Shown: positions 4,869 to 20,400 of the stretch, in pieces
Numbering within the stretch: position 1 is the stretch's first letter
Layout: every line of letters begins with the position of its first letter
Notes under the pieces: generated by a model
Database searches by the model: none
What the model saw: the letters and a program-made list of their open reading frames with translations, nothing else
What the model was told of the DNA's origin: nothing
Position numbers and translations under genes: made by a program
Sequence record: NC_052653.1
DNA: 64,000 nt
Source: Escherichia phage vB_vPM_PD06
Direction: 5' to 3' (one strand)

Positions 4869-5445
4869 ATCTTTTATTGTTGCAGTTGTTTTAGGTAGTG
4901 CATTGCTGGTAGGTTGTGATGATTCTGAAAATGTACAAAACCAACGTTACCAACAAACACCAAATCAGATGGTAGATGAACAATATGTAAATCAACCTGC
5001 ACCTCAAGTTGTTCAAGCAGCACCTGCACAACCTTCAACAGTTGTTGTGCAAGGAGGCGGTAGTGGTTCTTCTGGTGTAGGTGAATTTGCTACAGGTATG
5101 CTTCTTGGTCATATGTTGAGTGGTAATAGTGGCGGTGGTGGTTATAGAGATGGCGGTAGCAATACAACAATTATTAATAACAACGCTGCTCCTACAACTA
5201 ACAGTAAATCATATACAACACAAAAGCATAGTTTTTATGATAAACAAGGGAATACATATACAACAACTAAACAAAACACAATTAAGCAGCAAAGTGTACA
5301 AACGTATTCACGCCCATCAACAACAAAAGTGAATAGTGATTACTCTGCTCGTAAGTCTTACTCAAGCCCTATTAGCTCTTATAGTAAGTCTTCGAAAAGT
5401 TATTCTTCGTCGAAACGTAGTTTTAGTAGCTCACGTCGTCGTTAA
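4855..5445 (+). CDS. lipoprotein, Q/N/S/T-rich low-complexity body
   Basis: MKNIKSFIVAVVLGSALLVGC has a signal peptide and an LVGC lipobox. GAGAGGG lies before the ATG at 4855; the track start at 4840 is less likely. Confidence 0.7.
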   Translation: MKNIKSFIVAVVLGSALLVGCDDSENVQNQRYQQTPNQMVDEQYVNQPAPQVVQAAPAQPSTVVVQGGGSGSSGVGEFATGMLLGHMLSGNSGGGGYRDGGSNTTIINNNAAPTTNSKSYTTQKHSFYDKQGNTYTTTKQNTIKQQSVQTYSRPSTTKVNSDYSARKSYSSPISSYSKSSKSYSSSKRSFSSSRRR

Positions 5446-5480
5446 TAATTTAATACAGATTAAATAAGAAGGAGAAACAG

Positions 5481-6332
5481 ATGAAACTAGAAGTTGGTAA
5501 AGTGTATCGCCTGGAAGGTTGGATCTTTAATCAAGAAATTCTTGAGAAGAATAAAGATGGTTTTGAGTTTGTTGGTACTACCAAAGAAAGTATGCACGAT
5601 GACGAATACTGTAAATTCGTTGGTAAAAATACAGGTCAAGAACAATTTTGCTTTAAAAGCGCAATCGGTGATTATGCTTCTGTAATGCCAACGCCAGAAA
5701 AAACTTCGAAACAATATACTGTCTTTGGTGTAAAACTTGAAGAGCTTGTAGAACACCCACGTTTTGAAGAGTTTAAGGTTGCTGCAATGTGCAAGCATTC
5801 TGAAATTAAGATACATAATTTGTTTGATTTAGAAGATCGGTTTGATATCTTTATGTATGATCGCAGGGGAAAGCATTTTGATGCAACGACTTCAAAATTT
5901 GCTGCAACAGAGGATATTAAAATCCTTGATGTTGATACCTTTCTTGAGAGTGTATCGTTTGTATTCATTCCTAAATACAAAAAACGTAGTGATCATAAAC
6001 GTGTGAAAGGAACTCCTCGTAAAAAACGTACTGTAAACAAAGCAACTTTGCACTTCACTTCTGGTGATAAATATACTCTCAAAGGGTTTGAAAGTGTTTT
6101 GTATGATGCGGGAACGGGTAATATCAAGTTTATCATTAAGGCAACCTACAAAGGTACGGTATTGCACGAAGAGGCTGTTACACTACCTGTATTCGATATC
6201 TCTCGTGTTGAGGTACGGGGTGTTAAAGAGTCCTTCGATCTGGATTTCTTAACCACTAATGCTACTGGTTATGTTAACCTGGAAGCAGATGGAGCATTTA
6301 TTACTACAAATTATTTAGATATGTTTGTTTAA
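5481..6332 (+). CDS. hypothetical protein (283 aa)
   Basis: ORF track; AAGGAGA RBS. No motif recognised. Confidence 0.7.
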   Translation: MKLEVGKVYRLEGWIFNQEILEKNKDGFEFVGTTKESMHDDEYCKFVGKNTGQEQFCFKSAIGDYASVMPTPEKTSKQYTVFGVKLEELVEHPRFEEFKVAAMCKHSEIKIHNLFDLEDRFDIFMYDRRGKHFDATTSKFAATEDIKILDVDTFLESVSFVFIPKYKKRSDHKRVKGTPRKKRTVNKATLHFTSGDKYTLKGFESVLYDAGTGNIKFIIKATYKGTVLHEEAVTLPVFDISRVEVRGVKESFDLDFLTTNATGYVNLEADGAFITTNYLDMFV

Positions 6333-6400
6333 TACTTAATTTGTGTTATGATGGTGGTACAGAGGTATCACCATCTACTAAAGAATATGGAGGAAATTGA

Positions 6401-7504
6401 ATGTCCAGTCCTTTTATCAGTGCCGTAAAAAGCAAACCGTCTGAAACGAGTGTATTCACGGCAACAACAGAAAAAAGTAAGTCTTTGTTTGCTCCAAGTG
6501 CTATGGATGCAAGCCCTGTATATGCCCCTGCTGTTGCACGACCTGTACAAATGCTGCCTCCAATGTCTCGTGAAGAGATTGAACAGGTTGGTGCTGATGC
6601 AGGACTTACTCTTCGTAACCTTAATGCGGAAGTGCTTAAACACCAGCGTTCATCTCAGGGAGATGAAATGAGTGAGCGTTTAACCGCACTTATTAAGCAA
6701 GCAAAGCAACTTGATCCTAATTCTATTAAACAATCTAAAGGTTTAGGTAAGCTAGTTAAGAAAGTATTAGGTATGAAAGAAGATTTGTTTGGAGAATTTG
6801 ACACCATCAATAATCGTATTGAAGGTTTGGTAAAGACACTCCAAACAGACTTGAAAAAAGAAGAAGATTCTTTACGATATCTGCAACGTTTAGAAGAGGC
6901 TATTGCAAAATATGCTCTTAGCTTAAACAGGGATATAGAGCTTCTAACAGCTACTTATGAAAAAGAAGAAGTTCACCTTAATACACTACCTGAAAATGAA
7001 GTAGAAGAGCGTCAACGTACTCGTGATACTATGGATCTGCTTGAAATTCGTATTGCAGACCTGAAAGCCTTGCGTTTACTGTGTGTTCAGATGGGGCCAC
7101 GTGTACAAAGTATGCAGAAAGTATCTGCAAGTTTGATGCGATCAGCCCGTAATATTGTGAATAATGTTATTCCTGCTTACTCTGCAAACTTTTCTATGTA
7201 TATTGAAAGTCTACGCCAGAAGAAAGCAGCCGATACACAGAACAATGTACTGAATGAATTTAATGCTGCTATTGCAATGGGTAGTGATCTGGCTGCACAA
7301 AACCAAATTGAAGCTACACAACTTGCTAATCGTCAAGTATTGGATATTGAGACATTACGTCGCGATCAAGAAAACTTAGTTAAAATGTTGGAAGAAACTA
7401 ATCGGATCAACACTGAAGCCCGTGCTGCTCGTATTGATTACATTCAAGAAGTGCAATCTCTTGAAGATGGTATGATTCAAACTGTTAAACGTGGTCTACT
7501 TTAA
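6401..7504 (+). CDS. telA: TelA/KlaA-like toxic-anion-resistance family protein
   Basis: A 367 aa helical protein with TelA-like stretches (LGKLVKKVLGMKEDLFGEFDTINNRIEGL..., LQRLEEAIAKYALSL). GGAGGA RBS. Confidence 0.7.
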   Translation: MSSPFISAVKSKPSETSVFTATTEKSKSLFAPSAMDASPVYAPAVARPVQMLPPMSREEIEQVGADAGLTLRNLNAEVLKHQRSSQGDEMSERLTALIKQAKQLDPNSIKQSKGLGKLVKKVLGMKEDLFGEFDTINNRIEGLVKTLQTDLKKEEDSLRYLQRLEEAIAKYALSLNRDIELLTATYEKEEVHLNTLPENEVEERQRTRDTMDLLEIRIADLKALRLLCVQMGPRVQSMQKVSASLMRSARNIVNNVIPAYSANFSMYIESLRQKKAADTQNNVLNEFNAAIAMGSDLAAQNQIEATQLANRQVLDIETLRRDQENLVKMLEETNRINTEARAARIDYIQEVQSLEDGMIQTVKRGLL

Positions 7505-7517
7505 GGAGAAATATATT

Positions 7518-7724
7518 ATGAATATTAAAATTTACAAACTGTCTGGTTCTATGATCGCTGTCCAGTACGACAATGAAGATCGTTATGTTCTCCTCCAGGA
7601 TGCTTGGTTAGATGATCCTAATGTATTTACTGTCCTGCGAGAACTACGTTCTGTCTATACCTATTCTTCTAAAGATGGTTTTGATAGTTCAACGATGGAT
7701 TTGGTAAAAGAGGAGAATGTGTAA
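7518..7724 (+). CDS. hypothetical protein (68 aa)
   Basis: The ATG at 7518 is preceded by AAGGAGA. The track start at 7491 overlaps telA. Confidence 0.6.
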   Translation: MNIKIYKLSGSMIAVQYDNEDRYVLLQDAWLDDPNVFTVLRELRSVYTYSSKDGFDSSTMDLVKEENV

Positions 7725-7927
7725 TGAATAAAGATATTCACTTAACTCGTGAAGAATTACAAACCATTATGGAAGATGCTTTCATTGATGGTTGGAAACA
7801 ATGTCAAGAGTCAAATTGGTATGATGCCGAAAACTTTTTGTATTATCATATGACTGCACCTGTAGACGAGCCAACACATTCTGAAACAACTTTGGCCTTA
7901 ATTGATCTTAAGGCTGGTGTATTTTAG
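7724..7927 (+). CDS. hypothetical protein (67 aa)
   Basis: The start overlaps the upstream stop (TAATG). Confidence 0.6.
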   Translation: MNKDIHLTREELQTIMEDAFIDGWKQCQESNWYDAENFLYYHMTAPVDEPTHSETTLALIDLKAGVF

Positions 7928-8019
7928 TTGTAACTATCTCTTTAAACGAGTTACAAAAGATCACCAGAGAGGCTTTCTATTTAGGCTGGAGGGCAGGTAA
8001 AGGAGAAGACAGTGCTTAA
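7912..8019 (+). pseudogene. start-less fragment paralogous to the N-terminus of the 7724..7927 product
   Basis: An open frame without ATG/GTG/TTG encodes ...ISLNELQKITREAFYLGWRAGKGEDSA. Compare LTREELQTIMEDAFIDGWKQ at the start of the upstream gene. Confidence 0.3.
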
Positions 8020-8281
8020 ATTTAATATCAAAGACGATAAATCAGATGAACCTAAATGTTTTGGAGAACTTGACGCAGGTGATACATTCGTATATTATGT
8101 TGCGTATCAAGATTCTGGTTTAGATACGTTCAGAAACTTAGTGTTTATTAAAGTTAATACAAACCAAGCAATGTGTCTGAACGGTTCACAAAGAGGTCAA
8201 CTTAGCTGTATTTCATATGATACAGAAATGGTAGAAGTGGATTTAGAAGTTACTAACATTACACTCAGAAAGGAGAAATAA
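8012..8281 (+). CDS. hypothetical protein (89 aa), GTG start
   Basis: AAGGAGAAG RBS 5 nt before the GTG. Confidence 0.6.
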   Translation: MLKFNIKDDKSDEPKCFGELDAGDTFVYYVAYQDSGLDTFRNLVFIKVNTNQAMCLNGSQRGQLSCISYDTEMVEVDLEVTNITLRKEK

Positions 8282-8282
8282 T

Positions 8283-9077
8283 ATGTCCAATAAAATCAGT
8301 CTTAAAAAACGTCAAGAAACTCTTACTGTATCTCTGCGTAAGAAAAAGATTAACGATGTTGTTCTTCGTGTCGGTAGCGCCTTAGATATTTCGGGTAGTA
8401 TGTGTGAGCTGTATCGTGATGGCACTGTTAGTGATTTTGTAGGTAAACTGCTGCCGTTTGGTATGAAGTTTGATGACAATGCACAGATTGACATGTGGGC
8501 TTTCAATAGTTCTTCTTTTGAACTGCCTCCTGCAACGGCTGATGTGTATGATGATTATGTCGGCTCTTGCATGTCTAATGTTTGCATCAACGGTGGTACT
8601 GCTTATGCTCCAGTAATGCAAGAGATCTATGATACATACTTCGGTAGTGTACCTATGAAAAATATTACACGCGAAGTCGTTGAGTATGAAGAAGTCCCGG
8701 CTAAGGGTTTCCTTGCTAAACTAACTGGTAAAAAAGAACTTGTAGAAGTAACACGTACTATTGTAGAACAGGTTGTAGATACTGATGCACAAGTTGATCG
8801 TACTCCTGCAATGATTTTCTTCCAAACTGACGGGGAAAACATGGATACTTCAGCAGTACGTAGCTTACTGAACAAACACCGCAATACGCCTGTTTACTGG
8901 TTTATGGTTGGTGTAGGTAATGCAAACTTTAAATTCCTGAAAGACTTGGCAAAAGAGTACGATAATGTTGATTTTATCGGTATTGCAGATTTGTCCTTGT
9001 CTGATGAAGAACTTTACGATAAACTGTTATCCGAAGAGTTTGGTGAGTGGGTTAAAAAATTCGGAGCAAAAGCGTAA
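8283..9077 (+). CDS. von Willebrand factor A domain protein, TerF/TerY-type
   Basis: MIDAS motif DISGSM. The N-terminus ISLKKRQETLTVSL resembles TerD-family N-termini. A later FFQTDGEN block is present. Confidence 0.75.
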   Translation: MSNKISLKKRQETLTVSLRKKKINDVVLRVGSALDISGSMCELYRDGTVSDFVGKLLPFGMKFDDNAQIDMWAFNSSSFELPPATADVYDDYVGSCMSNVCINGGTAYAPVMQEIYDTYFGSVPMKNITREVVEYEEVPAKGFLAKLTGKKELVEVTRTIVEQVVDTDAQVDRTPAMIFFQTDGENMDTSAVRSLLNKHRNTPVYWFMVGVGNANFKFLKDLAKEYDNVDFIGIADLSLSDEELYDKLLSEEFGEWVKKFGAKA

Positions 9078-9084
9078 AAAACGC

Positions 9085-9112
9085 TTGACTTTGTAGAAAA
9101 GATTAGTAAAAT
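9085..9112 (+). promoter_or_regulatory. sigma70-like promoter TTGACT-16-TAAAAT
   Basis: TTGACT at 9085..9090 and TAAAAT at 9107..9112, in the 72 nt gap before terD. Confidence 0.55.
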
Positions 9113-9149
9113 AGACAACGTAAATTAACAACAAAGGAGATAATAAATT

Positions 9150-9746
9150 ATGACTCAGAAAATTTCCCTGAAAAAAGGTTCTAGCGAAAAAGTTTCTCTG
9201 AAAAAGATCGCACCAGCACTGAAACGCATTCGTCTGGAATTCTCTTGGAAATCTAACGAAAAACTGGATCTGGATGTTAGTGCTCTGATTTGCCGACACA
9301 ATGCATCTGGTCTGCCGGAACTGTTGTCTCCTCGTCACCTGGTGTGCTACGCGCAGAAATTTGATCCTGAACGTTCTACTTTTGCAGGTGAAGATGTTCG
9401 TGATGGTGTAGGACAGATGGAGCAGATTGATGTTACACTGGATAATATCTCTGCTGAAGCACAGGAAATTGCATTCGTAATTACTATTGATGACGAAACG
9501 GGTAAGAAACGCCTTGGTCACGCTACCGAAGGTTTCCTTAAAATCTTCGATGATGAACGTAATGTTGAACTGCTGGACTTTGACTTCTTGGCTCCAGAAC
9601 TTGCAGGTAACACCATTTGCCACGTTGCCTCCCTGGTGCGAGAAGATAGCGAATGGAAACTGAAAGCGTATGGTGTAGGTAAAGCTGGGCTTGACATTTA
9701 CGATGTAGTTAAAGCGTTTGGCGCTGGCGACGATTGGTTCGAGTAA
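9150..9746 (+). CDS. terD: TerD-family protein
   Basis: ISLKKGSSEKVSLKK..., LDLDVSALI, GEDVRDGVG..EQIDVTL and AFVITIDD match the TerD pattern. Codons are CTG-rich and host-like, unlike the neighbours. Confidence 0.85.
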   Translation: MTQKISLKKGSSEKVSLKKIAPALKRIRLEFSWKSNEKLDLDVSALICRHNASGLPELLSPRHLVCYAQKFDPERSTFAGEDVRDGVGQMEQIDVTLDNISAEAQEIAFVITIDDETGKKRLGHATEGFLKIFDDERNVELLDFDFLAPELAGNTICHVASLVREDSEWKLKAYGVGKAGLDIYDVVKAFGAGDDWFE

Positions 9747-9767
9747 TACGTCAAGTAATAAATCATA

Positions 9768-9790
9768 GCGCCCTTCGGGGCGCATATTTT
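9768..9790 (+). terminator. rho-independent terminator (TTCG tetraloop)
   Basis: gcgccc-ttcg-gggcgc followed by atatttta. Confidence 0.7.
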
Positions 9791-9810
9791 AAATAAAAGA
9801 GGAGAAAACA

Positions 9811-10413
9811 ATGGGTATTACTTTAGAAGGTCAAAAACTTATTCGTAGCGGCAATTTTCTTGTAGATATTGACAACAATGAAGATTATGCTTTAGAAGTT
9901 AGTGATGTGCTGTTTGATGCTTTGCAGTCTGGTTTCAATTTTGAAGTTTATGAAGTAATCCGTGGAACTAAACTCAGAGAAACCCTTGGATCATCTAGTG
10001 ATGTTTATCCGGCAATCTGGCAATATTTCGGGTTGATGGAGGGTAAGACATATCTTACTGATAGTTATTCTGAAGATGTTGTTTATCTTGATATGGAAGA
10101 GTTTCGTCGTCTGTTCAAAAGTGAAGAAAATGAAGAAGAGGGTGAACTTTTTGAAGGAATTACTCTCGAAGGTAATGTTGAAATTGTGTACAAAGCAGGA
10201 AAAACATTCCACCTACGCGAAAACGGTAAAGCAAAAGTTGATTTTGTAAACAAGACAGTGACAACTGAACATAATTATCTTAAAGATGGTCAACCAGCTT
10301 TTGAGCGTGTAAAAATTAAATTTAAAGTGTTGTCTGCACTAGTTACGGATCAAGAACGTATTGATTTTGTAGAAGATGGTGTAGTAACTCATACAAAGGT
10401 TTACAATATCTAA
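9811..10413 (+). CDS. hypothetical protein (200 aa)
   Basis: ORF track; AGAGGAGAA RBS. Confidence 0.7.
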   Translation: MGITLEGQKLIRSGNFLVDIDNNEDYALEVSDVLFDALQSGFNFEVYEVIRGTKLRETLGSSSDVYPAIWQYFGLMEGKTYLTDSYSEDVVYLDMEEFRRLFKSEENEEEGELFEGITLEGNVEIVYKAGKTFHLRENGKAKVDFVNKTVTTEHNYLKDGQPAFERVKIKFKVLSALVTDQERIDFVEDGVVTHTKVYNI

Positions 10414-10423
10414 CAGAGTGTAA

Positions 10424-10442
10424 GAGGGGGATAATCCCCCTC
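10424..10442 (+). terminator. GC hairpin, possible terminator (no clear T-run)
   Basis: gaggggg-ataa-tccccctc right after the stop codon. Confidence 0.4.
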
Positions 10443-10445
10443 CAC

Positions 10446-10474
10446 TTGCAAAATAGCCTCTTCTGTGTTACAAT
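10446..10474 (+). promoter_or_regulatory. extended -10 promoter TTGCAA-17-TGtTACAAT
   Basis: TTGCAA at 10446..10451 and TACAAT at 10469..10474, preceded by tgt. Confidence 0.55.
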
Positions 10475-10505
10475 AAAAGTTCGTTTAACAAAATAGGAGG
10501 CAAGT

Positions 10506-11015
10506 TTGTCAATAAAAACCTTTGTCGCAATTGCGTTACTATCCTTAACTGCTTTTACATTTACACCTGTTGTGGCGCAAGCCGAAGCTGCAAACGTAAA
10601 AACTGCTAAAGTAGTTCACAAGTGTACAAAGCGTGATAGTAAAGAAAATCTATTAGCTTGTGCAATCTATGCAGAAAGTCGTAATCAAGGAAAGCGCGGT
10701 ATGTCTGCTGTTGGTAATGTAGTATTGAATAGGGCTAGAGATTCATATTTCCCTGATACTATAAAAGAAGTTTTGTTTCAGAAAGGACAATTCTCTTACA
10801 CGAAGACATTCAACGTTATGGAACACGATAAGTGGAAGGAAGCTAAGGCTATAGCAGAACGTCTACTTTATCTCGATAACCATTTTCCAGAACTACGAAT
10901 TGCATTAGATATTACAAAAGGAGCATTATACTTTAAAAAATCTACAATAAGAGCACACTGGGAAAAAGATATGGTTCTAGTGTACCGCTACAAAGAACAT
11001 CAATTCTATCGCTAA
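10506..11015 (+). CDS. secreted SleB/CwlJ-type cell wall hydrolase (candidate endolysin), TTG start
   Basis: Signal peptide MSIKTFVAIALLSLTAFTFTPVVAQAEA. Hydrolase_2-like core CAIYAESRNQGKRGMSAVGNVVLNRA...KGQFSY. AGGAGG RBS. Confidence 0.75.
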   Translation: MSIKTFVAIALLSLTAFTFTPVVAQAEAANVKTAKVVHKCTKRDSKENLLACAIYAESRNQGKRGMSAVGNVVLNRARDSYFPDTIKEVLFQKGQFSYTKTFNVMEHDKWKEAKAIAERLLYLDNHFPELRIALDITKGALYFKKSTIRAHWEKDMVLVYRYKEHQFYR

Positions 11016-11025
11016 GGAGATATAG

Positions 11026-11304
11026 ATGAAAGATGGCGTTATCGTTGCAAGTTATCTTGTTATTGGTCTTACAGAAGAGGATGTACATTACATTAGGAAA
11101 CATTTAGAACAGTTTGCAATGATGTTCATCGAAGACGAAGACAATGTGGATGTTTATTCAATTGAAATGATCAATGATAACGTCTATCCTTGTATAGCTT
11201 TACGAGTCGATGAAGATGTTTGGGAACGTTTTTCACGTAGTCACGATAATGTTGAATGTTCTATGGTTATGTCACAAAACAACATACTGGGAGTGTTACA
11301 CTGA
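11026..11304 (+). CDS. hypothetical protein (92 aa)
   Basis: ORF track; AAGGAGA RBS. Confidence 0.6.
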   Translation: MKDGVIVASYLVIGLTEEDVHYIRKHLEQFAMMFIEDEDNVDVYSIEMINDNVYPCIALRVDEDVWERFSRSHDNVECSMVMSQNNILGVLH

Positions 11305-11534
11305 TGGCTGATGTTATTGAAGTTAACTTTAAAACAAAAAAGAAAGTTGATAAGTATACAATCTTAAAAAATATTTGCGTTGTGTGCTTCAATTCTGTAA
11401 TATATGACTCACGTAAGGGCGAAGATGAAAATGAACCTTACATCCAGATTTCTAAAGGTAAAGGGCAGTGTATCTGCAAAAACTGTGCTGTAGCAATTAA
11501 GGAGGTTGTAGATGAAAACCATTGGGATCAATGA
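11304..11534 (+). CDS. small zinc-ribbon-like protein
   Basis: The ATG at 11304 overlaps the upstream TGA. Cys pairs CVVC ... CICKNC. Confidence 0.55.
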   Translation: MADVIEVNFKTKKKVDKYTILKNICVVCFNSVIYDSRKGEDENEPYIQISKGKGQCICKNCAVAIKEVVDENHWDQ

Positions 11535-11706
11535 TACTGGTGAAGTTGTAAAATCTTGGGATGATCTTAGTGGTATCCCTACAGATAAACTGATTAAACT
11601 GCGTGATGTTTGTCGTGATCATCTTAATGAAACATATAAAGAGTATATGGAAGCACGAGATCACAGTTTAGCTATCCAAATGGAACTCGCAAAACGTAAT
11701 CAATAG
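11512..11706 (+). CDS. hypothetical protein (64 aa)
   Basis: AAGGAGG RBS 6 nt before the ATG. Confidence 0.6.
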   Translation: MKTIGINDTGEVVKSWDDLSGIPTDKLIKLRDVCRDHLNETYKEYMEARDHSLAIQMELAKRNQ

Positions 11707-11763
11707 GTAAAACCATTTGGACTTTTTAGTCTAAAAATGCTAAAGTAATAATACGGAGGGAGT

Positions 11764-12327
11764 ATGATATTTCACATAACTCCCTATCTTTCTGGAGATA
11801 TTGGAAAAGGTATCAATGACACAATAAGTGTCTTACCAGAAGATAGTTGGATTTGCCTAAGAGACATTGATACAATGTTTCTTCTTCCAGAACAACCTGC
11901 TTGGTTGGAATCAATAGTCCGTTCAAATCCTGATTTTGATGTTCTTGGTGCATCTTGTAATAGATTGGGATCAACATATCAATTATTTAATAATGAAAGA
12001 AGTGAAGATCCAAATATATTACACCACATTGAGATTGCAAAAAGAGCACATCTAGAATGGGGAAACTCAATAGAGGAAGTACCTACAGATGCTATCTTAG
12101 CAGGATTCTTTCTTCTCTTTCGTAAGAGTCTGTGGAATGAAATCCCTTTTGAGGAAAGATCAATACAGTTTGATATAATTTTCTCTAAAGCATTACACGC
12201 TAACAATAAAAGGCTAGGTTTACTACGTGGGTTATATTTATTTCACACATACCGTTTAGGTAATGATGATCCTAGAAAAGCTGTTTCACACCTTTTACAT
12301 TGTCAAGACATGAATAAAATTATTTAA
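11764..12327 (+). CDS. putative GT-A-type glycosyltransferase
   Basis: Small Rossmann-like N-terminus with a RDIDT (DxD-like) motif. GGAGGGAG RBS. The function call is tentative. Confidence 0.5.
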   Translation: MIFHITPYLSGDIGKGINDTISVLPEDSWICLRDIDTMFLLPEQPAWLESIVRSNPDFDVLGASCNRLGSTYQLFNNERSEDPNILHHIEIAKRAHLEWGNSIEEVPTDAILAGFFLLFRKSLWNEIPFEERSIQFDIIFSKALHANNKRLGLLRGLYLFHTYRLGNDDPRKAVSHLLHCQDMNKII

Positions 12328-12336
12328 GGAGTTATT

Positions 12337-13023
12337 TTGGAAAATACAAAAATTGGTGTTGGTGTTATTACTGTAGGTAAGCGTCCTCTTAAAGATTATC
12401 TTGTGACTGATCCTAATGCTACTTTTGTTGTGCAGTATGATCGGGAACGAAAAGGTGTTGCATATGCCCGTAATGAACTGATGAAAAAGTTTTATGATGA
12501 AGGGTATGATTACTGGTTTATTTTTGATGATGATTGCTATCCGGTTGTGCCAGGTTGGGAAACATATTTTGTAAAACAGGCTAAGGAAAATGGTTGGGAT
12601 TTCTTTGGTATGCCTGAATATTTTAAAGATAAAGTAAAAGGTATTGAGGGTGAAGTGGTTATTTGGGAACTAGGTATGTGTCAGTTTGGTATGTATTCCC
12701 GTGCAGTTATTGAGAAAGCTGGCTATTTCCGCTCATACACCCACGGTTATGGATATGAAGATGCAGAGTGGATTCAGCGCGTTCCACTGGCAGGTTTGAA
12801 CCGAGGTATTCAGGGCGTACCATGTCCTATTCGAATTATGGCGTTTATCCATCCTGACGATGTGTTTGGAGATAATCCTTTACCTTTTGCGAATCTGTCA
12901 AAAGAAGAGAAAGAACAGGGGATTGGTGTAAACTGGGAACAATATAAACAATCACTGGAGGATCTTCGCAATGGTAAAACTTTTATCTCTTATGAGGAGG
13001 CTCAAAAATATGGTAAGTGCTAA
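12337..13023 (+). CDS. putative family-2-like glycosyltransferase, TTG start
   Basis: IGVGVITVGKRP..., GVAYARNELMKKF and FIFDDDCYP (DxD). AAGGAG RBS. Confidence 0.6.
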   Translation: MENTKIGVGVITVGKRPLKDYLVTDPNATFVVQYDRERKGVAYARNELMKKFYDEGYDYWFIFDDDCYPVVPGWETYFVKQAKENGWDFFGMPEYFKDKVKGIEGEVVIWELGMCQFGMYSRAVIEKAGYFRSYTHGYGYEDAEWIQRVPLAGLNRGIQGVPCPIRIMAFIHPDDVFGDNPLPFANLSKEEKEQGIGVNWEQYKQSLEDLRNGKTFISYEEAQKYGKC

Positions 13024-13984
13024 TACTCCTGTACTTAAGTGTGATAATAAGTTAGGCAGTGGTTGTGATTACCATCGTATTGTAATGCCGTTTGCGGGAA
13101 ATACGTTCAAACCTAAGAAAGACGTTTTAGTTTTTAATAGAGTGTACTCTCGTGGATCAGACGAGGTTAAACGCCTGAAGGCACAAGGTGTTAAGATTAT
13201 TGTTGACTTAGATGACTTTTATTCACTTAATCCTGAACATTATATGGCTGGCGTATTTACTAATCACTCAAAGACTATTGTAGAGATGGTTAAGTTAGCA
13301 GATGTTGTTACAGTAACAACAGAATACCTGGCTTACAAAATTCGTCATTTAAACCGTAATGTTGTCGTTATTAGAAACGCACTACCTTACGACGAAGGTC
13401 AATTTACTTTGACAAAAGACCGTTATTCTGACACGCCTATTATTTGGGCTGGAGGAGCAAGCCATGAACCTGATTTATCTCTTGTAGCTAATACATTTGA
13501 TGATACACTATTGACAATTGCAGGGTATGAAGTGTATCCTTCTGCACCTGTTGGAAATAATAGTCAGTATCTAACTACTGCGGAGTGGGTTAAAATAAAA
13601 CGTAAAATTCCAAATGCACAGTATAAACCAGCTATTAAAAATTTAGGTGAGTATATGTCTGTGTATGACGGTCACAGTATTGCAATTGCTCCTCTGGTAG
13701 ATAATGACTTCAACAACTGTAAAAGCAATTTGAAGATTTTGGAAGCAGGTGCAAAGGGTCTTCCTATTATCTGTTCTCCTGTGCTGCCGTACTTCAATCC
13801 GGTAGATGCAAAGGCTGTTATTTATGCAGACTCTAAAGCATCTTGGCATTATGAAGTTGTCAAGCTAATGAGGAACCCTAGATACACAGAAGATCGTGGT
13901 ATGATGCTTGCAGAACACGTTCGTCTTAATTATAATCTTGCAGATGCCAATGAACTGCGTCGTCAAGTTATTGAAAGTCTTTAA
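13010..13984 (+). CDS. GT-B (group 1-like) glycosyltransferase, paralog A
   Basis: C-terminal NCKSNLKILEAGAKGLPIICS motif. GAGGAGG lies 9 nt before the ATG at 13010. Clear paralog of the next gene. Confidence 0.65.
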   Translation: MVSANTPVLKCDNKLGSGCDYHRIVMPFAGNTFKPKKDVLVFNRVYSRGSDEVKRLKAQGVKIIVDLDDFYSLNPEHYMAGVFTNHSKTIVEMVKLADVVTVTTEYLAYKIRHLNRNVVVIRNALPYDEGQFTLTKDRYSDTPIIWAGGASHEPDLSLVANTFDDTLLTIAGYEVYPSAPVGNNSQYLTTAEWVKIKRKIPNAQYKPAIKNLGEYMSVYDGHSIAIAPLVDNDFNNCKSNLKILEAGAKGLPIICSPVLPYFNPVDAKAVIYADSKASWHYEVVKLMRNPRYTEDRGMMLAEHVRLNYNLADANELRRQVIESL

Positions 13985-13995
13985 CAAGGAGCCAT

Positions 13996-14940
13996 ATGCC
14001 TAATATTATTCTTGACACACGTGGACATGAGAGGTATAGTGTATGTGATTTTCATAGAATCATTTTGCCATATAAACGCAAACTGACCATTAATCCTAAG
14101 CATAATATTTTTGTGTTCAATGGAGTACCAACTCGTGGAAAGCCAGGTTTCCTGGCTCTTAAACAACTTGGGTTTAAATTGGTAATGGATCTGGATGATT
14201 CTTTAATTATTCCTGAAGGGCATATGCTTGAAGGATTATTTGAAAATCAAATCCGAGATGACCTAAAATGGTTCCTTGAAAGAAGCGATCTTGTAACTAC
14301 AACAACTCCAGCATTAAAGGTTGAATTAAGCCAATACAATGATAATGTACATATTGTGCCTAACGGACTACCTTTTGATGAAGGACAGTTTGTTCTTACG
14401 AAAGATCGTTATTCTAAAAGTCCACTGGTTTGGGCGGGAAGTGAAACACATAAACATGATTTAGCAATTCTCCCTGCTTTTGGTAAAGAGTTAACTTTAT
14501 GTGGATTTCGTAGAGATCACGAAGAGTTAAGTAGTGCTCAATGGTTGCAAATTAAAGAAGAGATTCAACCAGATTGTGTTTATGAAGGTATTCGTCCTTA
14601 TGAGTGTTATATGGAAGCATACGATGGTCATCAAATCTCCATAGCTCCATTAGTAAATAATCATTTTAATAATGCCAAAAGTAATTTAAAAATTCTTGAA
14701 GCTGGTGCTAAAGGTTTGCCACTCGTTTGTTCACCAAGAGAGAACTATTATACTGAAGAGTTTAAAGATCTAATCTTCTTTGCTGATTCAGTTAAAGAGT
14801 GGAAAGATATTGTAGAATACTTAATCGAATCTCCTGATGTTTGTATTGAGAAAGGATTGGCTCTTGCTAAGTATGTAAGAGATAACTACAATATTGATGA
14901 TTTAAATGAAACCCGCAGACTGCTTATCGAGGATTTATAA
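13996..14940 (+). CDS. GT-B (group 1-like) glycosyltransferase, paralog B
   Basis: Colinear similarity to 13010..13984 (DFHRIILPY / DYHRIVMPF; LTKDRYS; SIAPLVNNHFNNAKSNLKILEAGAKGLP). Confidence 0.65.
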   Translation: MPNIILDTRGHERYSVCDFHRIILPYKRKLTINPKHNIFVFNGVPTRGKPGFLALKQLGFKLVMDLDDSLIIPEGHMLEGLFENQIRDDLKWFLERSDLVTTTTPALKVELSQYNDNVHIVPNGLPFDEGQFVLTKDRYSKSPLVWAGSETHKHDLAILPAFGKELTLCGFRRDHEELSSAQWLQIKEEIQPDCVYEGIRPYECYMEAYDGHQISIAPLVNNHFNNAKSNLKILEAGAKGLPLVCSPRENYYTEEFKDLIFFADSVKEWKDIVEYLIESPDVCIEKGLALAKYVRDNYNIDDLNETRRLLIEDL

Positions 14941-15209
14941 TGAACACTTTTGATTTTGAGTATAAACAAGATAATAAAGAACCTATTATTGTTGAAGTAG
15001 ATTACTATTATGAAGAACCTAATCCTTTCTCACGAGAAAGTGATTGGGATTATTATGGTGGCCTTATTGTTGATGGTATTAGGTTCTATTCTGGTACAAA
15101 AGAACTTTTTGATATAGATATTTCCCCATCGGAAATTGTTTACCAATTTAAGAAACATATGGAAGATTTGGAAATGCAATATATTATGGAGACAAACGAA
15201 TCATTTTAG
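14940..15209 (+). CDS. hypothetical protein (89 aa)
   Basis: The start overlaps the upstream stop (TAATG). Confidence 0.6.
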   Translation: MNTFDFEYKQDNKEPIIVEVDYYYEEPNPFSRESDWDYYGGLIVDGIRFYSGTKELFDIDISPSEIVYQFKKHMEDLEMQYIMETNESF

Positions 15210-15221
15210 TAGGAGAATCAT

Positions 15222-16994
15222 GTGTCTTATGTTGTAAATAAATATGGGTATAACATTGACCTAAGTCAAGAAGGACATACTGGGTGTCCTCGTTGTATGA
15301 AAGGAGGGCGTGATCGATCACAAAACAATTTGATGGTATACGGCTTAGATGCCGATGAAGACCATCGAGGCGCACATTGTTTTTCTTGTGGCTTTACTAT
15401 CCCTGATCAAAAATGGTTAAATGCACACGGCGAAGAAATTGAAGAGGAGGATATCTTGGGTAGTGAGTTTAATCCAGAAGTACATGATAAACTAAAAGCC
15501 AGCACTGGAACTAATCCAAAAGGTTATCGCGGTATTCGTGAAGATATCTCTAAACCTTTCGGTGTACGCTATATGTACGATGAAGCTACTGGCGAAGTAA
15601 TTTCAACACTATACCCTACAACTAAAGATTACAATATTGCTGGGTATAAACAACGTATTGATCCAAAAGATTTTTCGCATCCTATCGGTGAAACAGGAAA
15701 GGATTGTGATCTCTTTGGGGAGTTTAAATATCGTAACCACAGCGGTACTATTCTAATCGTTGGTGGTGAACACGATATGCTGGCTGCAACACAGATGCTA
15801 AAAGATTATAACAAGGGCGGTAAATATCCTGTTCCTGCTGTAGTATCTGGTACTTGTGGCGAAACATCTCTGCATAAGCAGCTTCAACATCGTTATAAAT
15901 TCTTAGATCAATTTAAAAAGATTGTTCTGTGTATGGATAATGATGAAGCTGGACGTGCAGCAGTTGAGAAATGTGTTAAAATCTTACCACGTAATAAAGT
16001 TTACGTGATGGAACTAACAGATGTTAAAGATCCTAACCAGGCACTAGTAGAAGGAAAAATTGATCACTTTCTTGATCGCTTTTTCAAAGCTAAACTGTAC
16101 ACACCTGCTGGTGTTTATGCTTCTAACGTACTGTATGAAGCAGCCTTGGAATGTCTGGAAGCTAAAATGATTACTCTTCCTCCATTCATGCGTGTTGCTT
16201 CTAATATGTTAGGTGGAGGCTTGGTAGAAGAAGAAATTACTGTTATACTTGCAAAAACAAGTATTGGTAAGACACTGTTGGTTAACGAGATTACGAAACA
16301 CATTATTCTTGCACACCCAGAACATACTCTTGGTATTTTATCTTTGGAGGCAACGTATAAGAAGTATTCTCGTAACTTACTGTCTTCATTCTTGCACATC
16401 CCTCTTCACCGTAAAACAAAAGAAGAGAAGGAAAAGATTTTAAAAGATAATGAAGAAAAGATTCGTGATTTTTACGAACGAGAAGATGGAACACCACGTT
16501 TCTATGTTTGTGATGATCGTGGAGCTAACGTAGATGTGATTAAAGAGAAGGTTCTGGAAATGATTATTTATTTCGGAGTAACCATTCTTGTTATCGACCC
16601 TTATTCTGATTTGCTTTCTGGTATGGACGTGTCACAACAAGAGGAACTTGCGACGTGGCTCAAACGCATTATGAAAGAGTACGCAATTACCATTGTTGTA
16701 ATTTCACACGTTAAAAAGTCTTCTAACAATAGTAATGAACATATTGTAGAAGATGATGCAATGGGTAGTAGCTTCCTTGCTAAAGGTGCTGGTATCACAA
16801 TTGCGCTGGAGCGTGATAAACAAGCTGAAGATCCTATGGAACGTAACCGCACATATTGCTACATTCTAAAGAACCGTGAGTTCTCAGAGACTGGTGCAGC
16901 AGGTAGTTTCTTCTATGAGATTAAAACAGCTACACTTCACGATTACGATCAATACACAAGTAACCCAGAGAATATTCCTGATGGTTCTTATTAA
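15222..16994 (+). CDS. bifunctional DNA primase/helicase (T7 gp4-like), GTG start
   Basis: Zn finger CPRCMKGG...CFSCG. TOPRIM VGGEHDMLA...CMDNDEAGRAA. DnaB-type Walker A LAKTSIGKT and Walker B-like LVIDPYS. Confidence 0.85.
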   Translation: MSYVVNKYGYNIDLSQEGHTGCPRCMKGGRDRSQNNLMVYGLDADEDHRGAHCFSCGFTIPDQKWLNAHGEEIEEEDILGSEFNPEVHDKLKASTGTNPKGYRGIREDISKPFGVRYMYDEATGEVISTLYPTTKDYNIAGYKQRIDPKDFSHPIGETGKDCDLFGEFKYRNHSGTILIVGGEHDMLAATQMLKDYNKGGKYPVPAVVSGTCGETSLHKQLQHRYKFLDQFKKIVLCMDNDEAGRAAVEKCVKILPRNKVYVMELTDVKDPNQALVEGKIDHFLDRFFKAKLYTPAGVYASNVLYEAALECLEAKMITLPPFMRVASNMLGGGLVEEEITVILAKTSIGKTLLVNEITKHIILAHPEHTLGILSLEATYKKYSRNLLSSFLHIPLHRKTKEEKEKILKDNEEKIRDFYEREDGTPRFYVCDDRGANVDVIKEKVLEMIIYFGVTILVIDPYSDLLSGMDVSQQEELATWLKRIMKEYAITIVVISHVKKSSNNSNEHIVEDDAMGSSFLAKGAGITIALERDKQAEDPMERNRTYCYILKNREFSETGAAGSFFYEIKTATLHDYDQYTSNPENIPDGSY

Positions 16995-17004
16995 GGAGAG
17001 AAAT

Positions 17005-17400
17005 ATGAAAGACAACGAAAATATCCTCTATGGGGTATCCCCTTCTGCGTTAGGGTATGATTATACGAAAACTGTTGCTAAGTTTAAATTTCAAGATGGA
17101 TCGGAGTTAGAACCATATGGTTATGCTTATGGTGAACATTTGTGGTTTGAGGATGGTTGCCTATACCTTCTCATTCAAACTACCAGTGGTTTTGTGGGAG
17201 AGCTTGTAGATCGTATGCTGAAAAATGTTAGTGATAAAGTTGTTCTTGATATCGCTAGTAAGGATGAAAACATTAATAACATTGTTTCCACTTTTAGTGG
17301 CTTAACAGGGACAGTTAAAATTGACCGTGTAGGCTTGAGAAATACCAATGGTGTCCCTAATTGCCTTATTAAAGTACAATTAAGTGCTGACAATAAATAA
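17005..17400 (+). CDS. hypothetical protein (131 aa)
   Basis: The ATG at 17005 follows AAGGAGAGA. The track start at 16876 lies inside the helicase gene. Confidence 0.6.
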   Translation: MKDNENILYGVSPSALGYDYTKTVAKFKFQDGSELEPYGYAYGEHLWFEDGCLYLLIQTTSGFVGELVDRMLKNVSDKVVLDIASKDENINNIVSTFSGLTGTVKIDRVGLRNTNGVPNCLIKVQLSADNK

Positions 17401-17405
17401 CAAGA

Positions 17406-17425
17406 AGGGGCGAAAGCCCCTTTAC
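17406..17425 (+). terminator. rho-independent terminator (GAAA tetraloop)
   Basis: aggggc-gaaa-gcccct followed by tta. The same hairpin core recurs at 28568..28585. Confidence 0.6.
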
Positions 17426-17490
17426 AAAACAATTAATTTATGGTACAGTATTAACAAATTAAGACTTTAGAAATATTTTAAGGAGGGAGA

Positions 17491-20400
17491 ATGGGAGCTT
17501 TTACTTTCGACATTGAAAGTAACAACTTGCTTAATGACGAAAGTGTAGATTACTTGGCAAGTCCATATCGTTTAAAAGATAGTTTTGCAATGCACTGTAT
17601 TGTGTGCGAAAGTCATGATACTGGAGAGATTATTGCTTTCCATGATGGTGATAAATATCTTTTCGATGGTCGTCCGTATATTGAGACTGACGGAAAGTAT
17701 GAATACCGACTGGAGGAATATGAGCATTTAGAATATACCCATTTCCCTCTTAAAGATTTTCCTGATTTTGTAAATGGAACAGGTAAATTTAAAGGTAATT
17801 CAAACTATAAAATTACCAAAGTAGTTGGACACAACATCATTAACTTCGACTTACTGGCAATTAAATTATTTTTTAAACTCAACTACAGTATTAAGTACAA
17901 TACTTGGGGTAATAGTAACATTGAAATTTGTGATACTATGATCTTAAGTAAGACACTAAACCCTGATCGCTTCGGTGGTCATAGTCTGGCAGAGTTATCT
18001 AAGAAAGCTGGAGGGGATGTTAAAATTGATTTTAGAAAAAACATTCCTGAAACTGAAAGATTTAGAACATTTGCAGCAGATATGCTGTATTACTGTATTT
18101 ACGATAACAAAGCTAACACCGCAGTGTTCCGTTATTTGATGGAAGAGTGGGGTGATTATAACAAGTGGTCTGAACCATTTAACTTAGAACAACGTGTAGC
18201 TGATATTATTACACGTCAAGAGCACCGTGGCTTTGCTTTCAATATGAAACAAGCAGAAGATAATATTCGTGATCTGGATGCTCGAATGGAAGCATGTCGT
18301 TTAGAGGCAGAACCTGTGCTACCTCCTAAACCTGCTACTAAAGGTTATTTGAAATCATTCATTCCACCTAAACTACAGTTTAAAAAGAATGGTGAGCCTT
18401 CAAGTAACATGATAAAGTTTGCAGAGAAACATTCTGGTGAACTTGTACAAAAAGAAGATGGTTGGTGGTTATTTGCATTAGGTAAAGAGTTTAAACTACC
18501 TATTCCAGCAGAAGAACCTATTTGTGATCCTACAGTACCTGCTACTTTAGACGACACTACACATATTAAAAATTGGTTAGTTGGTTTAGGTTGGAGTCCA
18601 TCTGAATATAAAGATAAAGATATCACTCTTAAATCTGGCACTAAGATTAAGAAAGATGAAGCACAAATGGAGAAAGCTATTCGTGACTATGTTGATCAAA
18701 CATTAGCATCTAACTTCTGCCAGGATAGATGTGATCATCTGGAGTGCACACCAGAAACTTTGGAATGGAAACTAAGAGATCGTATTGCTAAAGCTAAAGG
18801 TCGTGGTGTTAAAGTGCTTACTAACCCTTCCTTTACAAAAGGGCAAGAGAAGGATATTTGTCCTAACTTGGAAGCACTGGGTGAAAAGTTCCCTTATGCT
18901 ACGCAGATTGTGCAGTATCTTACGTATAAACATCGTAGAAACTCTATTCTAGGTGGTGGTGCTGATTGGGAAGAGGATGAAGAGGATTACGATAAAGGTT
19001 ATCTGGCGGCAGTAAGAGCTGATGGTCGTATACCAACTCCTGCTGCAACGTGTGATGCAGCTACGTCTCGTATGAAACATAGGTTAGTAGCAAATATCCC
19101 ACGTGTAACATCTCTGTACGGATATGAAATGCGTAACTTATTTGGTGTAGAAGTTCCAAAATACTTCCAAATTGGTTATGACTTTGATTCTCTTGAGGCA
19201 AAAATAGAATCACACTACTGTGTACCTATGGATGCACAAGCACTAACCCGTAAAGGTTGGGTTGGTTATCACGATCTACAAGAAGGGGATGAAATCTTAG
19301 GATATAACCCAGAAACAGGACTTAAAGAATGGACTAAAGTAAAAGGTAAGGTCTTCTATAAAAATAGTAAGACGTTTGAGATTAAAGGAAAATCCCATAC
19401 TTATCGTGCAACAGCAGATCACCGTTGGTATGTTAATACTCGTAGTACAGGGAATACTTATGTGCCTAAAGTCAGAACAACTGCCGAGCTTTGCACAGGA
19501 GATAACATTATTTGTAATGCTCCATTTAACATGGAACAAGATCAAGTAAATAGTTTAACTTCTGTTCAACAAGGTAAATGGGATGTTCCGTGGGTAGAAC
19601 GTGTAGTTAATATGTCTCATGCCGAGCGTGTGGCTTTCTTGGAAGGTTTTTTGATTGCGGATGGTTACTGGCACAAACATAAACAAAAACCTGTTTGGCG
19701 CTGGGCGCAGAACCCAGGAGAACTTTTTGAAGCAGCCTTAACTGCCTCATACCTGGTTCATGGGGGTAATATTTCTGTAGCCTTCAATACGAAAGACCAG
19801 AAAGTAAAAGTGGCAACGTTGGCTAACCGCTCTCACATCCCTGTTCAAAGTCTGACTATTGAAGAATGGGGTGTAGAAGATGTTTGGTGTCCACAAACAG
19901 AACTCGGTACATGGGTTATGCGTCAGAAAGACTGCATCACGATTACAGGGAATTGTTGGCGGTACGAGCAGGAACCACACGAATATTGTAATGCTCTATT
20001 GTTGGAAAAACCTAATGATGTTCATACAATGATGGCTCGACGTATTTCTGACACTATTGGTCGTAAGTTTGAACGAAGCCCTGCTAAATCTGTTAAGTAT
20101 GGTATTACTTATGGTGCTCAAGCTGCAAAAGTAGCAAAAACTATAGGTAGTGATATGTATACAGGACAGCTTGTATACGATGCTTTCTGGGAAGCTGCAA
20201 AACCTCTTGCGCTTCTTAAAGAACGTCTGCATGACTTTTGGGTTAAAACAGGTAAGAAATACATTCTTGGTATTGATGGTAGGAAAGTACCTACACGATC
20301 TGCACACGCAATACTTAACTCTCTGTTCCAGAGTGGTGGTGTTATTTGTGCAAAAAGAGCAATGGTTATCTACGATGATCTTATCGAAGAAGAAGGATTA

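Follow-up and report, generated by a model that had tools for sequence, protein, structure and literature searches.

Glycosylated virions are reportedly formed by the mycobacteriophages Che8, Corndog and Myrna. In mycobacteriophages, several soluble phage glycosyltransferases are thought to work in the cytoplasm, where they would add O-linked glycans to proteins of capsid and tail. The spore surface of Bacillus subtilis is glycosylated by a set of proteins that includes SpsA (a GT-A enzyme), CgeB of Pfam Glyco_trans_1_2 and SpsI-L, which are Rml enzymes. Phage- or virus-encoded glycosyltransferases are also described for O-antigen glucosylation (GtrA/GtrB/GtrC), for capsid glycosylation in chloroviruses and giant viruses (the rhamnosyltransferase domains of PBCV-1 A064R; Mimivirus R655/R699) and for DNA, namely the T4 alpha/beta-GT and TAGT (PF20691) enzymes (bioRxiv 10.1101/2023.12.21.572611).

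The window analysed here is a stretch of 64,000 nucleotides of Escherichia phage vB_vPM_PD06 (NC_052653.1), a Justusliebigvirus (phi92-like, Stephanstirmvirinae). It carries a cassette of four genes, g1 to g4, in the replication arm immediately 5′ of the primase/helicase and DNA polymerase genes. Like the mycobacteriophage type, the cassette comprises several soluble phage-encoded glycosyltransferases; in other phages, distant homologues of g1, g2 and g3/g4 are found among head genes, often beside methyltransferases. Unlike that type, the system described here is known from genes alone, has a Gram-negative enterobacterial host, is encoded in the replication arm and belongs to a phage that supplies its own dTDP-rhamnose pathway. 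With the T4 and TAGT systems the cassette shares consecutive phage GT-A and GT-B genes near replication genes. The resemblance to the Bacillus spore system is an analogy of parts, with homology only at the level of fold or Pfam clan, and concerns a bacterial spore, not a virus. Likeness to the chlorovirus and Mimivirus enzymes is at the fold level only; other GT-A enzymes score higher, and host and virus type differ.

The cassette and its products

The block at 11764-14940, as the preliminary description had it, is real and consists of four closely spaced plus-strand ORFs. The motifs cited there are all present in the translations: RDIDT in g1, FDDDCYP in g2, and in g3 and g4 the shared CDYHRIVMP/CDFHRIILP, LTKDRYS and NxKSNLKILEAGAKGLP blocks. 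These genes already bear the product name glycosyltransferase in GenBank, and literature searches found no paper testing their function. The GT-A folds predicted for both g1 and g2, together with Pfam GT-B domain matches in the g3/g4 family, support the view that all four products are glycosyltransferase-like, two being GT-A and two paralogous GT-B enzymes.

The first gene, g1 (11764-12327, + strand, 187 aa), encodes a minimal GT-A glycosyltransferase. Its predicted fold is a single Rossmann-like alpha/beta/alpha domain that superposes on solved GT-A enzymes, and the DxD motif is D34-I-D36, both aspartates being invariant across 30 homologues down to 32% identity. On the predicted structure, g1 is a GT-A fold nucleotide-sugar glycosyltransferase. 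The GT-A fold of both g1 and g2 was assigned by structure prediction because searches of PDB sequences with the two proteins and their family profiles gave no significant match. The g1 family is phage-specific and has no Pfam model, and a sequence relationship between g1 and g2 was not detectable. A Foldseek search of viral models with g1 returned a homologue, gp39 of Cellulophaga phage phi18:2, and otherwise generic GT-A proteins that offered no functional lead.

The second gene, g2 (12337-13023, + strand, 228 aa), begins with a TTG preceded by an AAGGAG ribosome-binding site. The predicted structure is that of a GT-A fold, with FDDDCYP as the DxD element and a downstream acidic ED motif (YGYED); D64, D65, D66, E141 and D142 are invariant in 18 homologues. 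The best Pfam match of g2 is TAGT, at 23.3 bits over residues 16-75 only, against a gathering threshold of 27.5 bits. Glyco_transf_7C is reached at 13.5 bits (cut-off 23); g2 itself lies below the gathering thresholds of PF00535 and PF02709. Among 100 relatives detected by profile, PF02709 was matched by 45 and PF00535 by 43 (E<=0.001), and TAGT by 12 (best E 2.7e-5). Assignment of g2 as a TAGT or DNA glycosyltransferase was rejected on the sub-threshold score and the mainly GT2/GT7-like character of the relatives. Thus, g2 is a GT2/GT7-like GT-A enzyme rather than a TET-associated DNA glycosyltransferase.

The remaining two genes are paralogs far above chance, as claimed earlier (BLASTP, 41% identity over 311 residues, E=3e-82). 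The mechanical ORF of g3 spans 12971-13984 on the + strand (337 aa). Translation probably begins inside this ORF, at the ATG of position 13010, giving a protein of 324 aa (13010-13984), since a GAGGAGG ribosome-binding site stands in front of 13010, the PHROG profile match starts only at residue 20 and the largest homologue clusters are 322-324 aa long. The match of g3 to PHROG 7162 is strong (E=3e-149). The fourth gene, g4 (13996-14940, + strand), encodes the second GT-B paralog of 314 aa, in which a DLDD motif, H152, D155, K228, S229, K232 and E235 are invariant across 27 homologues. Its C-terminal nucleotide-sugar-binding Rossmann domain is recognised above threshold by Glyco_trans_1_2 (PF13524; 26.8 bits, cut-off 25), and weaker matches are seen to Glyco_transf_4 (N-terminal half, sub-threshold) and Glyco_trans_1_4. 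Taken alone, g3, its 41% paralog, falls below the Pfam thresholds (17.8 and 14.4 bits). Across the family, Glyco_trans_1_4 (PF13692) was matched by 21 of 27 members and PF13524 by 18 of 27; fewer matched Glyco_transf_4 (6/27, sub-threshold) and Glycos_transf_1 (5/27). With Pfam matches to both enzyme halves, that to the N-terminal half being sub-threshold, the family appears to be of the GT4-like GT-B type. Its profile drew weak matches only, to MshA and TreT, among PDB sequences. The invariance of the residues named for g1, g2 and g4 points to functional constraint on these motifs.

Comparison with related phages suggests that g3 is the ancestral copy and g4 a second, more divergent paralog. 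The g3 protein is 66% identical to the sole GT-B of Klebsiella phage KP2025 and 42-44% identical to homologues from Pseudomonas, Trinickia and Burkholderia. Records of the E. coli-infecting Justusliebigvirus and Phapecoctavirus contain g4, which is absent from the Klebsiella phages KP2025 and FKP3; among the records listed, E. coli-type Stephanstirmvirinae have two places for a GT-B and KP2025/FKP3 have one. The latter two also lack g2, their cassette being g1 and the g3 orthologue only, which indicates that cassette length is variable in nature. The earlier idea that four transferases imply an oligosaccharide is reasonable, as is the alternative that they serve several acceptors.

Downstream, a small and very acidic protein (orf89; 14940-15209, + strand, pI 4.1) starts in overlap with the g4 stop codon. 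It gave no match in a Pfam scan and is kept directly after the cassette solely in Stephanstirmvirinae-type loci (10 homologues, all in cassette-bearing loci); it may tentatively be counted as part of the cassette. Scans for sigma-70 promoters and terminators inside the cassette gave nothing above chance, and in the terminator scan only two hairpins that flank it, at 9768-9783 and 17405-17422, are conspicuous. The cassette, primase/helicase and DNA polymerase genes apparently form one transcription unit.

Just upstream of the cassette is a conserved Ter-type cluster that includes phosphoribosyltransferase, HAD and macrodomain genes, an arrangement also seen in the Klebsiella relatives. The phage has, besides, genes for 14 tRNAs and several fragments resembling tRNA synthetases. 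GT4-type enzymes, moreover, include ones active on small molecules, with MshA among the weak profile matches. The cassette could on these grounds act on another intracellular acceptor: a host protein, glycosylated in toxin-like or EarP-like fashion, a nucleoside of RNA or tRNA, or a nucleoside-like metabolite from the Ter/phosphoribosyltransferase/HAD/macrodomain neighbours. We consider this improbable: the Ter cluster is set apart from the cassette by the strong 9768-9783 hairpin and a number of unrelated genes, homologous cassettes elsewhere occur without Ter genes and among head genes, and no homology points specifically to such an acceptor.

The maximal 19-residue Kyte-Doolittle hydropathy is 0.8-1.2 across all four proteins, which therefore appear to be soluble and free of transmembrane segments; three of them (g1, g2, g4) are acidic. 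This solubility bears on the possibility that the phage remodels host envelope glycans, with rhamnose and other sugars being added in the cytoplasm to lipid-linked or core LPS, ECA or NGR intermediates. This would mask the receptors that infected cells and debris display, leading to superinfection exclusion and sparing progeny from dead-end adsorption. Phage-encoded glycosyltransferases do change a glycan in Gtr-type systems; these, however, are membrane proteins of temperate phages that use undecaprenyl-phosphate sugars, whereas the cassette encodes four soluble proteins of a strictly lytic phage. A membrane-embedded GtrA flippase with GtrB/GtrC transferases was not found, nor was any other membrane component (Wzx- or Wzy-like partner). 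The homologous families are, in addition, almost wholly phage- or prophage-encoded and often situated in late head modules, an odd site for host-conversion genes, and in the prophages examined they adjoin packaging and head genes. Envelope remodelling is thus unlikely.

Sugar donor and the case for DNA

The preliminary description saw no sugar-nucleotide synthesis genes in the window. Within the window this stands, as tblastn with Rml proteins found none; for the genome as a whole it is misleading, since near-identical genomes (98-99% over the queried block) carry rmlBACD. In phage EmilieFrey, 98.4% identical to the window over the queried block, a complete rmlB-A-C-D operon for dTDP-L-rhamnose lies ~70 kb from the cassette, at a site outside the window and among nucleotide-metabolism genes. 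RmlC and g1 are each present at Stephanstirmvirinae-level identity in 129 phage records, and each in 103 'Escherichia' records, the link being one of equal record counts and not of a record-by-record match. Klebsiella phage KP2025 has RmlC as well as g1. These data suggest that phage-made dTDP-L-rhamnose could be the sugar donor for at least one cassette enzyme.

Rhamnosyl-DNA has been put forward by earlier authors as the role of the rml genes (PMC7552041), and the position of these genes among those of nucleotide metabolism, like that of the cassette directly 5′ of the primase/helicase and DNA polymerase genes, is in keeping with that idea. So are the TAGT match of g2 and its R...DDD...ED pattern, which is described for phage DNA GT-A enzymes, the presence in the genome of a Dcm-like C5-methyltransferase and a MazG-like NTP pyrophosphatase, and the recurrence of DNA methylases as neighbours of the GT-B family. 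The TAGT score, however, is sub-threshold, and the Dcm-like methyltransferase is ~60 kb away from the cassette, which does not lie in a TAGT-type neighbourhood of TET/JBP dioxygenase and C5-methyltransferase. In the preliminary description no base-hydroxymethylase had been visible and a genome-level search was proposed. Carried out on the near-identical EmilieFrey, this search detected no dCMP/dUMP hydroxymethylase, TET/JBP or 2OG oxygenase among the larger hypothetical proteins (20 scanned, nearly all >=170 aa). The same scan turned up ThyX, a MazG-like protein, a weak NT5C-like match, CapR and an AAA protein. The thymidylate synthase is of the ThyX type (RHR...S...S.R motif), and a T4-like pathway to a hydroxylated base (dCMP/dUMP hydroxymethylase, 5hoC synthase, TET) was not found among the proteins scanned.

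The published phenotypes also differ from those expected of modified DNA. Vequintavirinae and their relatives, phi92-like phages included, are exceptionally sensitive to type II/III restriction-modification in published tests, and Druantia III and ARMADA II, two systems that appear to require unmodified DNA, act against Stephanstirmvirinae. These phenotypes are at odds with bulk hypermodification, so glycosylation of phage DNA would have to be limited to a few sites or to an unconventional acceptor. The acidic character of g1, g2 and g4 also argues against DNA, and even this limited form of DNA glycosylation seems to us a poor prospect.

Neighbourhoods of the homologous families and virion proteins

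In this phage the cassette is in the replication arm and not in or next to the structural module, but the latter position is seen for distant homologues of its enzymes. In IMG/VR, head or connector genes directly adjoin the g1-family gene at 33 of 67 loci, and such flanking spans 11 of 24 clusters (70% identity). Typically the portal gene comes first, followed by genes for head morphogenesis, the protease and the major head protein, then a GT, g2-like and g1-like genes, and lastly head-tail adaptor Ad1, Hc1 and Neck1; at three loci the order is portal, GT-B, g1. In Cellulophaga phage phi18:2, gp39 (a g1-like fusion) is located between portal/minor capsid and protease/major capsid genes, and in Streptomyces phage KimJongPhill the terminase, portal and capsid genes are directly preceded by those for an epimerase, a methyltransferase and a GT-B homologue. 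The homologues that show this synteny are distant (27-45% identity) and may act on a different acceptor. The g1, g2 and GT-B families occur together: a g2-like gene adjoins a GT-B gene at 37 of 80 loci, and g1 adjoins a g2-like gene at >28 loci.

Protein-type neighbours are found in bacteria. In Burkholderia and two Trinickia genomes the GT-B gene follows genes for an invasin/intimin-type protein and a 555-aa protein, and in Pseudomonas prophages a gene for a Big_2 Ig-like protein is followed by g2-like and GT-B genes. A search of the window with the neighbours of the B. dolosa GT-B (invasin, Ig-like proteins), aimed at common acceptor-like proteins, matched only the glycosyltransferase itself. 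In temperate phages the GT-B family is mostly found just 5′ of the terminase gene, in a region that also holds DNA methylases, N6_N4 MTase being a recurrent neighbour.

The preliminary description had left DNA, virion proteins and host surface glycans side by side as acceptors. Of these, virion proteins are now backed by the head-module synteny of three enzyme families, and DNA is the least supported. We tentatively propose that the cassette acts on virion proteins, to which it would attach a glycan containing rhamnose, a reading that is plausible though far from assured. It gains support from the siting of all three enzyme families among the head genes of other phages and the tendency of these families to occur together, from the complete rmlBACD set and distribution counts matching those of g1, from the invasin/intimin-type and Big_2 Ig-like neighbours, and from the products being four soluble proteins, three of them acidic. 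It is weakened by the position of the cassette in the replication arm, outside the structural module, and by the pre-terminase, methylase-containing location of the GT-B family in temperate phages. The searchable literature holds no report of a glycosylated virion protein for any coliphage (the phi92 proteomics paper lay outside that search).

In the scheme that we infer, acceptor, sugar donor, order of action and benefit included, the four soluble cytoplasmic glycosyltransferases would build a short, probably rhamnose-containing glycan on capsid, decoration or fibre proteins while particles are being assembled. dTDP-L-rhamnose from the phage's own rmlBACD would feed at least one of them. The core pair, g1 (GT-A) and g3 (GT-B), may attach and extend the first sugars, and g2 and the extra paralog g4 may add further residues. 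The resulting change of the particle surface could affect stability, protease or immune recognition, or binding to glycans.

Significance for Stephanstirmvirinae and other phages

The cassette genes were already known and annotated as glycosyltransferases; what is new is the rml context and the head-module synteny of the homologous families. A wider claim may be ventured with more reserve: that virions of Stephanstirmvirinae carry cassette-built rhamnose glycans and, at the same time, that the trio of g1-like, g2-like and KSNLKxLEAG GT-B genes marks a widespread and so far unrecognised capsid-glycosylation system in hundreds of phage lineages, typically encoded between the genes for the major head protein and the head-tail adaptor. 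If true, this would be the first case of virion glycosylation in coliphages, and a puzzle in the literature, a full dTDP-rhamnose pathway in phages whose DNA behaves as unmodified, would be accounted for. Stephanstirmvirinae are broad-host-range phages frequently isolated for therapy and biocontrol (phi92, phAPEC8, many E. coli and Klebsiella phages). Glycosylated particles would differ in how they are recognised by the immune system and cleared, in stability and possibly in how they adhere to mucus or bacterial surfaces, as has been reported for mycobacteriophages, and the head-module synteny would flag a large set of uncultured phages as likely to share the trait.

The cassette and its surroundings

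Four open reading frames, g1 to g4, were found between 11764 and 14940 as the preliminary description had placed them, with all of its quoted motifs. They are tightly packed, with gaps of 10–12 nt or overlaps: g1 (11764-12327), g2 (12337-13023), g3 (mechanically called at 12971-13984; its start is most likely 13010, not 12971) and g4 (13996-14940). The tandem GT-B genes g3 and g4 are indeed paralogous (41% identity over 311 residues, E=3e-82), and direct comparison of g1 with g2 revealed no sequence relationship. None of the four products has a hydrophobic segment; those of g1, g2 and g4 are acidic (pI 5.1–5.6) and that of g3 is mildly basic. The region 11500-15300 (3.8 kb) is 98–99% identical to about 50 genomes of Justusliebigvirus (phi92-like, Stephanstirmvirinae), including pEC-M2929-1AR.1, PHB05 and the BASEL phage EmilieFrey (MZ501063). 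The genes are already annotated: several GenBank records label them 'glycosyltransferase', and EmilieFrey has two as 'putative glycosyltransferase' and two as 'putative disaccharide synthase'.

The cassette lies in the replication arm, outside the head module. Primase/helicase and DNA polymerase are among the plus-strand genes, which run to about 24.4 kb; there the GC skew changes sign and tail-fibre genes follow on the opposite strand. Promoter-like and terminator-like matches within the cassette are at chance level, and the closest strong hairpins lie upstream (9768-9783) and downstream (17405-17422). Thus, the cassette is probably co-transcribed with the upstream gene for a secreted SleB-like hydrolase and the downstream primase/helicase. 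The hydrolase (10506-11015, plus strand, 169 aa; Pfam Hydrolase_2, Cell Wall Hydrolase, E=5.8e-20) has an N-terminal signal-like hydrophobic stretch, and its gene, in the early/replication arm, is separate from the annotated endolysin. The start of a plus-strand ORF for a very acidic 89-aa protein (14940-15209, pI 4.1) overlaps the g4 stop codon. This ORF, seen solely directly 3′ of the cassette in Stephanstirmvirinae-type loci, has no family match and could encode an accessory factor or acceptor.

Directly upstream of the cassette is a plus-strand Ter-type cluster (855-9746). It starts with HAD-like, phosphoribosyltransferase and macrodomain proteins (EmilieFrey annotation names), carries TerC (3645-4622), TelA (6401-7504), a vWA-TerF-like protein (8283-9077) and TerD (9150-9746), and ends at the bidirectional hairpin 9768-9783. 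The cluster is kept in Klebsiella relatives and calls to mind the 'Ter-dependent stress response / nucleoside-like metabolite' neighbourhoods reportedly described by Anantharaman, Iyer and Aravind. The DNA polymerase ORF (17491-20805) encodes 1104 aa, against 859 aa in EmilieFrey. Residues 578–821 (19222-19953) form a clean 244-aa insertion between 99% identical flanks; its first residue is Cys, a LAGLIDADG-like 'LIADGYW' block lies within it, and it ends in GN before a Cys. An intein bearing a homing endonuclease is its probable identity.

All four genes are present in both Justusliebigvirus and Phapecoctavirus, with inter-genus amino-acid identity of 66–76%. The Klebsiella relatives FKP3 and KP2025 have, at the same genomic position, only g1 and a single GT-B gene, which is the g3 orthologue (66% identity to g3 versus 39% to g4). 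Thus g1 and g3 constitute the core and g2 and g4 an add-on, which fits a glycan differing in length or branching between lineages. The cassette and RmlC also occur in five GenBank records (MG065639, MG065645, MG065650, MG065656, MG065689) labelled 'Campylobacter phage', with C. jejuni as host. In four of them the sequence is 98% identical to the cassette region of this E. coli phage, and the fifth, B15, has Phapecoctavirus-type versions (about 76% amino-acid identity to g4); probably the host labels are wrong or contaminating coliphage was sequenced.

Enzyme identity, sugar donor and DNA as a possible acceptor

The cassette encodes four glycosyltransferases. For Glyco_trans_1_2, g4 exceeded the Pfam gathering threshold. 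Among 27 members of the GT-B family, matches were obtained to both halves of GT4-type enzymes, with Glyco_transf_4 for the N-terminal half and Glyco_trans_1_4, Glyco_trans_1_2 and Glycos_transf_1 for the C-terminal half. MshA and TreT were weak PDB matches of the family profile, and sequence profiles support a predicted GT-B fold for g3 and g4.

The preliminary description saw no sugar-nucleotide genes. This holds for the window but not for the genome: near-identical EmilieFrey encodes the complete dTDP-L-rhamnose pathway (dTDP-glucose 4,6-dehydratase, glucose-1-phosphate thymidylyltransferase, 3,5-epimerase and reductase; rmlBACD, MZ501063 116028-119289) some 70 kb from the cassette, within the nucleotide-metabolism arm. 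That phi92-like and phAPEC8-like phages possess this pathway was pointed out by Olsen et al. 2020 (PMC7552041), who speculated on rhamnosylated hydroxymethyl nucleotides. In the phage database, at Stephanstirmvirinae-level identity, the record count is 129 for g1 and likewise 129 for RmlC (103 'Escherichia' in each case), and the divergent KP2025 has both. From this matching distribution, dTDP-rhamnose can reasonably be inferred as donor for at least one cassette enzyme. EmilieFrey also carries an NAD salvage pair (PRPP synthetase and nicotinamide phosphoribosyltransferase, 139344-142042), several tRNA-synthetase-like fragments and a sirtuin.

The top Pfam match of g2 is TAGT (TET-associated glycosyltransferase, PF20691), at 23.3 bits against a cut-off of 27.5 and over the nucleotide-binding region only. 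When 1.8 billion representatives were searched in full with HMMER, 1475 g2 relatives emerged; among 100 scanned, 45 matched Glyco_transf_7C, 43 Glycos_transf_2 and just 12 TAGT, each weakly. A TAGT-type identity for g2 was therefore rejected. The thymidylate synthase is ThyX-type (EmilieFrey 124839-125810), and none of 20 larger EmilieFrey hypothetical proteins scanned matched TET/JBP, 2OG oxygenase or dNMP hydroxymethylase. The authors of one published study found nothing to indicate that the 'sugar-related enzymes' modify DNA. Sparse, site-specific DNA glycosylation is improbable; a route to it would be a Dcm-like C5-methyltransferase (EmilieFrey 105966-106955) with an undetected oxidase, and in temperate phages the GT-B family usually occupies a region also home to DNA methylases. 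The earlier interpretation is upheld in part: the four glycosyltransferases stand, the phage provides its own dTDP-rhamnose, and of the three acceptors proposed DNA is the least probable.

Synteny with head genes and the acceptor

Viruses account for the overwhelming majority of members of the g1, g2 and GT-B families. At least 553 IMG/VR matches were obtained for the GT-B family, marked by the KSNLKxLEAG motif; 37 of the 80 loci sampled have a g2-like gene close by, mostly directly adjoining. For the g1 family (184 IMG/VR matches), more than 28 of the 67 loci have an adjoining g2-like gene, and head or connector genes flank in 33 of the 67, a pattern seen in 11 of 24 g1 clusters at 70% identity. 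Genes recur in the order portal, head morphogenesis, protease, major head protein, a 436-aa glycosyltransferase, g2-like, g1-like, Ad1 (head-tail adaptor), Hc1 (head closure) and Neck1; three loci of the g1 set show portal, GT-B, g1. Cellulophaga phi18:2 gp39, with a g1-like C-terminal half (TM 0.87), lies with a Methyltransf_24 gene between portal/minor-capsid and protease/major-capsid genes. In Streptomyces phage KimJongPhill an epimerase, a methyltransferase and a GT-B homologue immediately precede terminase, portal and capsid. Metagenomic contigs carry UDP-galactopyranose mutase, deacetylase, DegT aminotransferase, epimerases and methyltransferases with g1-like genes.

The GT-B gene of temperate phages usually precedes the large terminase by a few genes, with N6_N4 methylase, hexapeptide acetyltransferase and XkdF-type protease as recurrent neighbours. 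Prophages of Pseudomonas silvicola and relatives (L015-L017, L022; about 8600-17800, including DUF2280) show the order Big_2 Ig-like, g2-like, GT-B, metallopeptidase, small and large terminase, portal; the glycosyltransferase pair thus adjoins an Ig-like protein at the packaging-module boundary. A conserved, non-phage, adhesin-like locus in Trinickia symbiotica (L018), Burkholderia dolosa (L019) and Trinickia sp. (L021), at about 4600-12400 in each, encodes an inverse-autotransporter invasin/intimin-type protein of roughly 1100 aa, a 555–571-aa protein and a GT-B (42–44% identity to g3), with a 474–499-aa Ig-like protein on the opposite strand. This locus may represent a system devoted to glycosylating an adhesin.

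Glycosyltransferase genes wedged between major head protein and adaptor are most simply explained by action on the particle, much as described for mycobacteriophages and giant-virus capsids; the homologues compared for synteny are just 27–45% identical, and acceptor specificity can change. Glycosylation of virion proteins is our leading, still tentative, explanation, against which stands the position of the present cassette in the replication arm. Envelope-glycan remodelling appears unlikely, and some other intracellular acceptor is more doubtful still. What is new is that the three families show synteny with head modules and a distribution shared with the rml genes.
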